Shown here: in pieces, positions 57,361-58,108 of the stretch
Layout: each line of letters starts with the position of its first letter
Numbering within the stretch: position 1 is the first letter of the stretch
From: Dictyostelium discoideum
Lineage: Eukaryota
Direction of reading: 5' to 3'
Length of the DNA stretch: 64,000 nucleotides
NCBI GenBank assembly: GCA_000004695.1
Contig: CM000154.2
Coordinates: 2,528,001 to 2,592,000, forward strand
Notes under the pieces: generated by a model
The model's input: the letters and a program-made list of their open reading frames with translations, nothing else
Told to the model about the DNA's origin: nothing
The model's database searches: none
Translations under genes and position numbers: made by a program

Positions 57361-57444
57361 TATGTCAGAGGAAAATTTAGATAACGCAAAAAATCGTGTT
57401 TCGTTTTCAATTAAGTTCAAAAGTGTCCGATACTCATCATAGAA
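57361..57444 (-). ncRNA. Candidate box C/D snoRNA 1
   Basis: Minus strand 5'-…CUAUGAUGAGUAUCGGACAC…UUCCUCUGACAUA-3'. A C box AUGAUGA lies 57440..57434 near the 5' end and a D box CUGA lies 57368..57365 four nt from the 3' end. Internal CUGA-like and UGAUUU elements are present. Composition is normal, in an otherwise >85% AT intergenic region. Confidence 0.45.
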
Positions 57445-57692
57445 AATTTATACCCCAAACCAACAAATAAAAAAATACAAAGTTAATAAATTATTAAATA
57501 TTTACCAATTAAAATTAATATAAAAAAGGACTACCAAGAATTTGGACTTTGAAAAAAGATTTAACCTGTAATTTCAAACAAAAGCAAAAAAAAAAAAATA
57601 ATAAAAAATAAATTAGTATAAAATTTTATTATTTAATATAAATAATACCATAGTTATTTAAACACAATATTTTAAAAAAATATGATAAAATT

Positions 57693-57770
57693 ATGTCAGA
57701 AGACTGTCGTGAGAAATCAATTGAGTAATCACAGATTTCATAGAGCTGAGTTGAATTACTTCATCATATT
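57693..57770 (-). ncRNA. Candidate box C/D snoRNA 2
   Basis: 5'-AUGAUGA-AGUAAUUCAA-CUCA-GCUCUAUGAAAUCUG-UGAUUA-CUCAAUUGAUUUCUCACGACAGUCUU-CUGA-CAU-3'. It has a C box at the 5' end, a D box at the 3' end, candidate D' and C' boxes, and terminal AUG/CAU pairing. Confidence 0.5.
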
Positions 57771-58029
57771 AATATTATCAATTTTTTTAAAAATAAGTGT
57801 TTAAATACTCGGTAAAGTATTTTTCAAAATAATTACCTTTTTACATATAATCTCAGAAAGCTTTTTGTACCTAAAGGGAGAGAAAAAAAAAAAGAAAATT
57901 CAAGAGAAAAAACCTAATAAGAAAAAAAAAAAAATATATATTAATTAGCAATTAATTTTTTTTTTTGGAAAAAATAAAGTATAATAATTATAATATCAGC
58001 TTTTATTATTGTTATTATTTTTATTTATA

Positions 58030-58105
58030 ATGTCAGAAGACTGTCGTGAGAAATCAAATTGAGTAATCACAGATTTCATAGAGCTGAGTTTGAATACTTC
58101 ATCAT

Positions 58106-58108
<3 letters not shown>
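58030..58108 (-). ncRNA. Candidate box C/D snoRNA 3 (near-identical paralog of snoRNA 2)
   Basis: Same architecture as snoRNA 2 with 3 substitutions/indels (…gagaaatcaaattgag…gagtttgaatacttc…). The two copies are about 340 bp apart on the same strand. Confidence 0.5.

Follow-up and report, generated by a model that had tools for sequence, protein, structure and literature searches.

The region is almost certainly the published Dictyostelium discoideum chromosome-5 cluster of three expressed box C/D snoRNA genes, CD16 (DdR16), CD23 and CD5 (DdR5). Because this cluster is already published, the finding adds no new RNA. Positions refer to the window, by which we mean the whole 64-kb stretch of DNA that was analysed. 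The Rfam family RF01566 (DdR16) matched 58031-58108(-) with 103.8 bits and 57694-57770(-) with 102.7 bits, both times over the full length of the model (positions 1-78), and RF01573 (DdR5) matched 57363-57443(-) with 114.4 bits over model positions 1-81, with every position equal to the consensus; the gathering score is 70 in each case. When the window was scanned at gathering thresholds, a tRNA was the sole further match. These results bear out the sequence-only reading of the region as three minus-strand box C/D snoRNA genes in an AT-rich intergenic spacer.

Another check on the identity of the genes is their published position. Table S5 of Diesend et al. 2022 (Sci Rep 12:1952, PMC8817022) places CD16 at chr5 2586030-2586108(-), CD23 at 2585693-2585770(-) and CD5 at 2585362-2585443(-). 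Subtracting a constant 2,528,000 from these coordinates gives the window positions of the units that we call A, B and C, so that the window corresponds to D. discoideum AX4 chr5 2,528,001-2,592,000. Since the same offset holds for all three loci and the Rfam matches are full-length, the units are CD16, CD23 and CD5, respectively. The loci had been thought not to be identifiable; in fact Rfam and the exact coordinate match name them as DdR16, present in two copies, and DdR5. Units A and B agree with RF01566 DdR16 and with CD16 and CD23 in sequence, length, strand and coordinates, so that each is the same locus with no biological difference, and unit C is likewise identical in locus and sequence to RF01573 DdR5 and CD5. 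According to Diesend et al. (PMC8817022), CD16 and CD5 date from Aspegren et al. 2004 and CD23 from 2022. In a search of the window, the published primer-extension oligos for CD23 and CD5, as well as the published guide strings, mapped to these units. The evidence for expression comes from the literature, and consists of RNA-seq, with more than 100 reads and a distinct 5' end, together with the primer-extension oligos. The three units and their boxes are as follows.

58031-58108, minus strand: unit A, DdR16 = CD16, 78 nt (Rfam RF01566 and Table S5)
58105-58099 and 58036-58033, minus strand: C box AUGAUGA and D box CUGA of unit A
58079-58076 and 58070-58064, minus strand: D' box AUGA and C' box GUGAUUA of unit A
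58092-58080 and 58051-58037, minus strand: D' guide CAAACUCAGCUCU and D guide UCUCACGACAGUCUU of unit A, where the published duplex strings were located
57694-57770, minus strand: unit B, CD23, a DdR16 paralog, 77 nt (Rfam RF01566 and Table S5)
57767-57761, 57741-57738, 57732-57726 and 57699-57696, minus strand: C box, D' box AUGA, C' box and D box of unit B
57754-57742 and 57714-57700, minus strand: D' guide UCAACUCAGCUCU and D guide of unit B
57363-57443, minus strand: unit C, DdR5 = CD5, 81 nt (Rfam RF01573 and Table S5)
57440-57434, 57420-57417 and 57368-57365, minus strand: C box, D' box UUGA and D box of unit C
57409-57404, minus strand: candidate C' box UGAAAA of unit C
57429-57421, minus strand: D' guide CGGACACUU of unit C, whose D guide is about 19 nt long

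On the minus strand, each unit opens with AUGAUGA and closes with CUGA, just where the sequence-only reading had put these boxes, and the gaps from C box to D box are 62, 61 and 65 nt in units A, B and C. The annotated 3' end is in every case CUGA followed by two nucleotides (CA). Our box assignments agree with Table S4 of Diesend et al. (PMC8817022). That table gives a terminal stem for CD16 and CD23 and none for CD5; we found at most three to four possible pairs flanking the C and D boxes. GC content is 0.32-0.34 within the units, compared with 0.11-0.21 in their flanks, and no ORF of at least 50 aa overlaps them, again in accordance with what had been claimed. Minimum free energy folding of the three RNAs was no better than that of shuffled sequences (z = +0.6 to +1.0), as is usual for guide snoRNAs.

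Units A and B had also been described as near-identical paralogs about 340 bp apart, and this proved correct: their starts are 338 bp apart, and 74 of 78 positions (95%) are identical inside the RNA. Outside it, identity drops to 47% in the upstream and 53% in the downstream flank, which is the level of shuffled sequence. Identity that is confined to the RNA in this way indicates selection on the RNA bodies only.

Chance resemblance is a concern for any gene defined by two short boxes. The pattern ATGATGA-N50-100-CTGA occurs seven times on the two strands of the 64-kb window, four times in the three units and three times elsewhere, the latter without an Rfam match. Unit A accounts for two of the four, since a second CTGA, 37 nt beyond the first, is also within reach of its C box. 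Because the bare motif pair is not rare, the motif alone is weak evidence, and it is the full-length Rfam matches that carry the proof. While the three pairs elsewhere in the window would fit the idea that the units are look-alikes of C/D boxes or dead pseudogenes, that idea is already refuted by the Rfam scores of 103-114 bits, by guides specific for rRNA positions known to be methylated, by the published RNA-seq and primer-extension support, and by conservation confined to the RNA bodies. We give it practically no credence.

RNAs of this class assemble with Snu13, Nop56, Nop58 and fibrillarin on the C/D and C'/D' boxes. A guide of 8-15 nt immediately ahead of box D' or D pairs with pre-rRNA, and the rRNA nucleotide that faces the fifth guide position is methylated at its 2'-OH by fibrillarin. 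From each D' and D box we took the 13-16 nt on its upstream side and compared them, ungapped, with 120 eukaryotic LSU rDNA loci from metagenomes. When extended complementarity to the DdR5 guide (GTGTCCGAT...) was demanded in the metagenome scan, no locus was found, and a relaxed pattern yielded the 120 loci. The guide tests rest on the rDNA of these other eukaryotes and on short Dictyostelium rRNA strings printed in Diesend et al. 2022. We checked 32 published D. discoideum methylated positions on the 120 loci and no locus agreed throughout; the Dictyostelium-specific pairing therefore rests on the strings printed in the Diesend supplement.

Scored by contiguous run, the D' guide found its best site at the C of GAGC*UGGGUUU in 118 of the 120 loci for unit A and in 115 of the 120 for unit B, with 11 contiguous bp (A) or 10 bp (B), one of them G:U. 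Under a mismatch-tolerant score, the equivalent of C3281 had the top score, alone or in a tie, in all 120 loci for A and in 117 of 120 for B. The D guide common to A and B scored best, without a tie, at the first C of GAC*CGUCGUGAGA in 116 loci and tied in the remaining four; guide positions 2-5 and 7-15 pair (13 bp), and position 6 forms an A:C pair. To number these sites, we took the second one as 26S-C3292; with that anchor, several loci have the published nucleotide at every one of the ten methylated positions reported in the range 2952-3292. As the anchor fits these ten positions, the target sites of A and B are 26S-C3281 and C3292. The Dictyostelium rRNA strings UGGGUUUAGACCGUCGUGAGA and AAGUGUCCA pair with the guides as predicted, and Figs S5 and S6 of Diesend et al. 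(PMC8817022), where the strings are printed, display the same duplexes, including the A:C pair. With best sites in at least 115 of the 120 rDNAs for A and B, the complementarity check thus upholds the earlier proposal that rRNA antisense guides lie 5' of the D' and D boxes.

CD16 and CD23 are double guides, in which the D' element (..AACUCAGCUC, D' = AUGA) targets 26S-C3281 and the D element (UCUCACGACAGUCU, with A:C at position 6) targets 26S-C3292. According to RiboMeth-seq, 26S-C3281, C3292 and G2984 are all methylated (PMC8817022). The first corresponds to yeast C2948, the target of snR69, and the second to yeast C2959 (snR73) and human C4506 (U35) (PMC8817022). DdR16 has its D guide, CUCACGAC.GUC..CUGA, in common with yeast snR73, human SNORD35 (U35) and plant snoZ161/Z228 (RF00328), and the target is the same nucleotide in the conserved GGGUUUAGACCGUCGUGAGA stretch; the job of yeast snR69 is done by the DdR16 D' guide. 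DdR16 differs from the U35 clan in having A rather than G at guide position 6, which produces the A:C pair, and from snR73, U35 and snR69 in carrying both guides on one RNA, with sites 11 nt apart. The covariance model of the snoZ161/Z228-U35 clan (RF00328) gave 26.9 and 21.8 bits, below its gathering score of 45; what is in common is the guide alone.

For DdR5, the D' guide CGGACACUU (D' box UUGA) forms 8 bp with the printed Dictyostelium rRNA 5'-AAGUGUCCA-3', with 26S-G2984 as the target. The same 8-bp duplex, with the printed Dictyostelium string AAGUGUCC, qualifies unit C as a box C/D methylation guide. Most other eukaryotes have AGGUGUCC at the site equivalent to G2984, and the site of the 8-bp DdR5 duplex is not top-scoring in non-dictyostelid rDNAs. 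The D' element of CD5 (GGACACUU, D' = UUGA) targets 26S-G2984, and the D element is an orphan: among the 120 rDNA loci, the D-box guide matched only the spacer repeats of one locus and, imperfectly, a conserved LSU stretch.

The position of G2984 suggests a relationship with a known human site. The distance from G2984 to C3292 is 308 nt in Dictyostelium and also in 57 of the 120 sampled rDNAs, and human G4198 and C4506 are separated by the same 308 nt. The human-minus-Dictyostelium offset is 1214 on both sides of the site (4166/2952 and 4362/3148). Human 28S Gm4198 is the site of SNORD58A (PMC9616492). DdR5 itself aligns to SNORD58 (RF00151) in its 5' half only, with 23.6 bits (E=0.046), and does not reach the gathering score of 42. 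Taken together, the 308-nt spacing, the offsets of 1214 and the weak 5'-half alignment indicate that Gm2984 is very probably the conserved SNORD58 site. The likeness of DdR5 to SNORD58 consists of the alignable 5' half (UGAUGA..GGACAC.UUUG.A..UGAAAA) and the equivalent target position; it differs in an unrelated 3' half and in a duplex of only 8 bp. Gm2984 is listed as having no human equivalent in Table 1 of Diesend et al. (PMC8817022). Instead of being an amoeba-specific site, Gm2984 with CD5 may be the Dictyostelium counterpart of human Gm4198 with SNORD58, and its recognition as a site common to human rRNA would be useful for work on Dictyostelium snoRNAs.

Mapping the published strings to the window revealed that the labels CD15 and CD16 are swapped in parts of Diesend et al., and that A and B both guide C3281 and C3292. 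Under 26S-C3281 and C3292, the sequence found at the CD16 coordinates carries the name 'CD15' in Fig. S6, in Tables 1 and S7 and in the oligo list (PMC8817022). For example, CAAACUCAGCUCU AUGA, published as 'CD15 - 26S-C3281', is unit A (58092), as is UGUGAUUACUCAAU UUGA (58071), published as 'CD16(+6) - 17S-G1589'. The 'CD15' oligo is the same as the 'CD23' oligo and matches both A and B, while neither the guide published as 'CD16 - 26S-G1686' nor the oligo named 'CD16' occurs anywhere in the 64-kb window. From these results we conclude that the labels were exchanged. The correction bears on which RNA should receive credit for Cm3281 and Cm3292, and which for Gm1686.

The stretch proposed to act at +6 on 17S-G1589 is non-canonical: it shares nucleotides with the C' box, and the UUGA at its end has no C' box behind it. 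Unit B has a one-nucleotide deletion here (AAUUGA, compared with AAUUUGA in A). If the pairing with 17S-G1589 is real, this deletion would set G1589 at the canonical +5, and the canonical +5 guide of 17S-Gm1589 may then be CD23 instead of CD16.

How the CD16-CD23-CD5 cluster is expressed is a question raised without a settled answer in Diesend et al. 2022 (PMC8817022), who class the genes as intergenic. The sequence-only reading had also called them independently located genes, a description that may need revision, since splice-like signals around each unit suggest that the snoRNAs reside in introns of a host transcript. On the minus strand, donor-like sequences are found at 58182 (GTAAGTATTA), 57836 (GTAATTATTT) and 57505 (GTAAATATTT), with GTAAGT 74 nt before A, GTAATT 66 nt before B and GTAAAT 62 nt before C. 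Past the 3' end of each unit comes a branch-like motif, starting after 82 nt for A (gCTAAt), 77 nt for B (taCTAAt) and 56 nt for C (gCTAAc); each is followed by a T-rich tract with its first AG at 57915-14, 57567-66 and 57276-75, respectively. CTAAY occurs four times in 2.07 kb of this strand, and three of these occurrences are the branch-like positions. The signals resemble those of protein-coding genes in the window, whose inferred introns start with GTAAGTATTA, GTAAATATTA, GTAATTATAA or GTATGT and in about half of the cases have [AT]CTAA[CT] 22-43 nt before the AG; the donor decamer at 58182 is identical to that of a coding intron at 13875. The predicted exons and introns are as follows.

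58183-58199, minus strand: putative first exon and transcription start region, CAACAAAAACTATTTTT, after a T run and the TATA-like TTTATATTTTT, followed by GTAAGT at 58182
57914-58182, minus strand: putative intron 1 with CD16, 269 nt; 5' splice site GTAAGTATTA, GCTAAT at 57949-57944, AG at 57915-57914
57837-57913, minus strand: putative exon 2, 77 nt, pyrimidine-rich, no ORF
57566-57836, minus strand: putative intron 2 with CD23, 271 nt; GTAATTATTT at 57836, TACTAAT at 57618-57612, AG at 57567-57566
57506-57565, minus strand: putative exon 3, 60 nt, containing AATTCTTGGT at 57542
57275-57505, minus strand: putative intron 3 with CD5, 231 nt; GTAAATATTT at 57505, TGCTAAC at 57308-57302, AG at 57276-57275
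57180-57274, minus strand: putative terminal exon, with AATAAA at 57209

The predicted spliced RNA would be about 250 nt long, with stops in all frames. We also considered 'ccacAG' at 58201-58200 as an acceptor; it is disfavoured, as the only upstream CTAAY is 174 nt away, and we take it for the last part of the T-rich promoter tract, immediately ahead of the putative start.

We assessed the significance of these signals with 20,000 dinucleotide-preserving shuffles of each spacer, searching for donors within a 40-120 nt window. All three donors were reproduced in 0.12% of the shuffles (p=0.0012), as were all three combinations of branch site and AG (p=0.0012), and all six signals together appeared in none of the 20,000; these values are to be read with the motif definitions having been chosen after inspection of this first cluster. 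In 128 kb, 19 instances of the composite pattern were found; three of these are the tandem ones described here, each of which encloses one snoRNA.

As a replicate, the same definitions were then applied to a second cluster, DdR13-DdR2, located 14 kb from CD16-CD23-CD5 in a second D. discoideum assembly (L121), which is 99.6% identical and reaches past the end of the window. Both snoRNAs of this cluster have an exact GTAAGT on their upstream side, DdR13 at a distance of 53 nt (L121 18744; shuffle p = 0.021) and DdR2 at 43 nt (L121 18402; shuffle p = 0.023). DdR2 is followed by TACTAAT and an AG (p = 0.029), and no CTAAY was found after DdR13. Both clusters start with a T run and then the rare 9-mer CAACAAAAA, which occurs nine times in 128 kb and has its copy in the second cluster at L121 18799. 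In both, the 10-mer AATTCTTGGT, which occurs only once in the window and once in the additional 9 kb of L121, is found in the spacer before the last snoRNA, and an AATAAA follows shortly past the last acceptor.

We tentatively propose, as a possibility that falls somewhat short of being probable, that CD16-CD23-CD5 and DdR13-DdR2 are short snoRNA host genes whose non-coding transcript is spliced and whose introns each hold exactly one snoRNA. The three RNAs of the first cluster would be released from successive introns of a short, spliced and polyadenylated transcript. Such an arrangement, with one snoRNA per intron, is not described for Dictyostelium in Diesend et al. 2022 (PMC8817022) or in the reviews that we consulted. 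It would account for three findings in the literature: that snoRNA genes within clusters show 'equal spacing' (PMC8817022); that Aspegren et al., in the account given by Diesend et al. (PMC8817022), did not detect a primary transcript here; and that knock-out of DrnB (RNase III) leaves snoRNA levels and 5' ends unchanged. Mammalian UHG, GAS5 and SNHG genes and Drosophila dUHG are likewise tandem arrays of a short non-coding exon and an intron with one snoRNA, and the predicted Dictyostelium genes resemble them in their regular spacing, in the lack of an ORF in the predicted spliced RNA, and in an AATAAA soon past the last acceptor. They differ in that no pyrimidine-tract (5'TOP) start is present, that their introns are predicted from sequence signals, and that the snoRNAs of the cluster lie 88-128 nt from the predicted 3' splice site, as against about 70-80 nt in known host genes. 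The portion of the lncRNA tables of Rosengarten 2017 available to us has no entry at chr5 2.584-2.587 Mb, which weighs against a host gene, as do the published classification of the genes as intergenic and the missing CTAAY motif at DdR13.

Two other modes of expression have to be weighed against splicing. The snoRNAs could be three independent Pol II genes with their own promoters and terminators, the GC-richer islands in the spacers being promoter or terminator elements, for example termination motifs of the UCUUG/GUAA type as in the yeast Nrd1-Nab3 pathway. UCUUG is indeed found beside GUAG/GUAA at 57539-57531, TCTTG occurs at about 57905, and TATA-like strings are common in this DNA; moreover, Diesend et al. 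(PMC8817022) suggest mono- or bicistronic units because, in their account of the work, Aspegren et al. saw no primary transcript here. This explanation nevertheless leaves unexplained the exact 5' splice-site consensus 43-74 nt upstream of five of the five snoRNAs in the two clusters, and the CTAAY, T tract and AG after four of the five. The 43 nt between the island and DdR2 leave no room for a promoter, and no UCUUG-type motif follows the last snoRNA of either cluster. Nab3 is also not known outside fungi, and on balance we consider independent genes unlikely.

A single unspliced polycistronic precursor, cut by an endonuclease and trimmed by exonucleases as in the yeast snR72-78 and plant clusters, would fit the common strand of the genes and their regular spacers of 250-260 nt. 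Diesend et al. (PMC8817022) also report, from Aspegren 2004, that RT-PCR detected dicistronic precursors for three other Dictyostelium clusters. No precursor was detected for CD16-CD23-CD5, however, and the splice-like signals would have to be a coincidence, although the six occurred together in none of the 20,000 shuffles. We therefore hold a polycistronic precursor to be distinctly unlikely. The spliced host gene that we favour is a concrete and cheaply testable proposal for the expression of Dictyostelium snoRNA clusters.

A protein search with the neighbouring peptidase M3 gene gave Heterostelium album and otherwise distant hits; in H. album (L125), the only ortholog locus compared, no snoRNA lies beside the peptidase M3 gene. 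In D. discoideum, the neighbours of the cluster on the same strand are the peptidase M3 gene, which ends at 58654, and a 529-aa ORF starting at 56022; a small unannotated ORF of two exons appears to start at 56594.

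The spacers of the CD16-CD23-CD5 cluster, which holds three published box C/D snoRNAs on the minus strand, contain splice-like signals that flank each snoRNA in order (58199-57180, minus strand):

58182, 57836 and 57505, minus strand: donors, GTAA[GAT]T
57948, 57616 and 57306, minus strand: CTAAY motifs
57915-14, 57567-66 and 57276-75, minus strand: AG dinucleotides
57209, minus strand: AATAAA

This motif arrangement suggests that the cluster is a putative non-coding host gene in which each intron would carry a single snoRNA. A second cluster, DdR13-DdR2, lies beyond the window end in L121, another D. 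discoideum assembly (18187-18799, minus strand), approximately 14 kb past CD16 and on the same strand. There, both snoRNAs have an exact GTAAGT upstream, at 53 nt and 43 nt, and DdR2 is followed downstream by TACTAAT plus AG. Two rare motifs are common to both clusters: CAACAAAAA, at L121 18799 and window 58199, and AATTCTTGGT, at L121 18432 and window 57542.

Comparison of window 58031-58108 with Tables 1, S2, S5 and S7 and Fig. S6 of Diesend et al. 2022 (PMC8817022) shows that the labels CD15 and CD16 are confused in that paper. The guides listed under 'CD15' (26S-C3281 and C3292), together with the corresponding oligo, belong to the RNA at the 'CD16' coordinates, 58031-58108; neither the 'CD16' G1686 guide nor the 'CD16' oligo was found in the window.

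The pairing of CD16 with 17S-G1589 was published as a non-canonical '+6' (Diesend et al. 2022, PMC8817022). CD23 is one U shorter than CD16 at this point (AAUUGA; 57732-57715 versus 58071-58054), so that in CD23 the same pairing would be the canonical +5. Since the paired stretch runs into the C' box, and no C' box follows the UUGA, the interaction may be non-functional altogether.

Two guide regions were located in DdR5 (CD5):

57417-57429: D' guide and box
57369-57387: D guide GCGUUAUCUAAAUUUUCCU, 19 nt, upstream of the D box

The D guide is an orphan, and scans of foreign rDNAs for an rRNA target gave just imperfect matches. 26S-Gm2984, the target of the D' guide, is listed as Dictyostelium-specific (Diesend et al. 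2022, PMC8817022). Human 28S Gm4198, the target of SNORD58, is 308 nt from the U35 site, a distance equal to that of 26S-Gm2984, and DdR5 has weak similarity to SNORD58. Both the 26S-Gm2984 site and the DdR5 guide are probably conserved.

Approximately 50 nt downstream of the AATAAA at 57209 is a GC-rich hairpin (57143-57162, minus strand; 6 bp, GTGTGG ... CCACAC, 8-nt loop) with a T run after it. An apparent two-exon small ORF of about 60 aa occupies 56310-56594 on the minus strand (ATGTCATTATTTA|GTAAGT ... AG|AATCATTAACC ... TGTTAA); no gene is called in the equivalent L121 stretch. Elsewhere the window contains:

22132-22213, minus strand: tRNA-Leu(AAG), 82 nt (Rfam, 50.8 bits; confirmed by ARAGORN)
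7720-7819, 33279-33378, 50278-50377 and 51447-51546: four assembly gaps in the reference, each exactly 100 N
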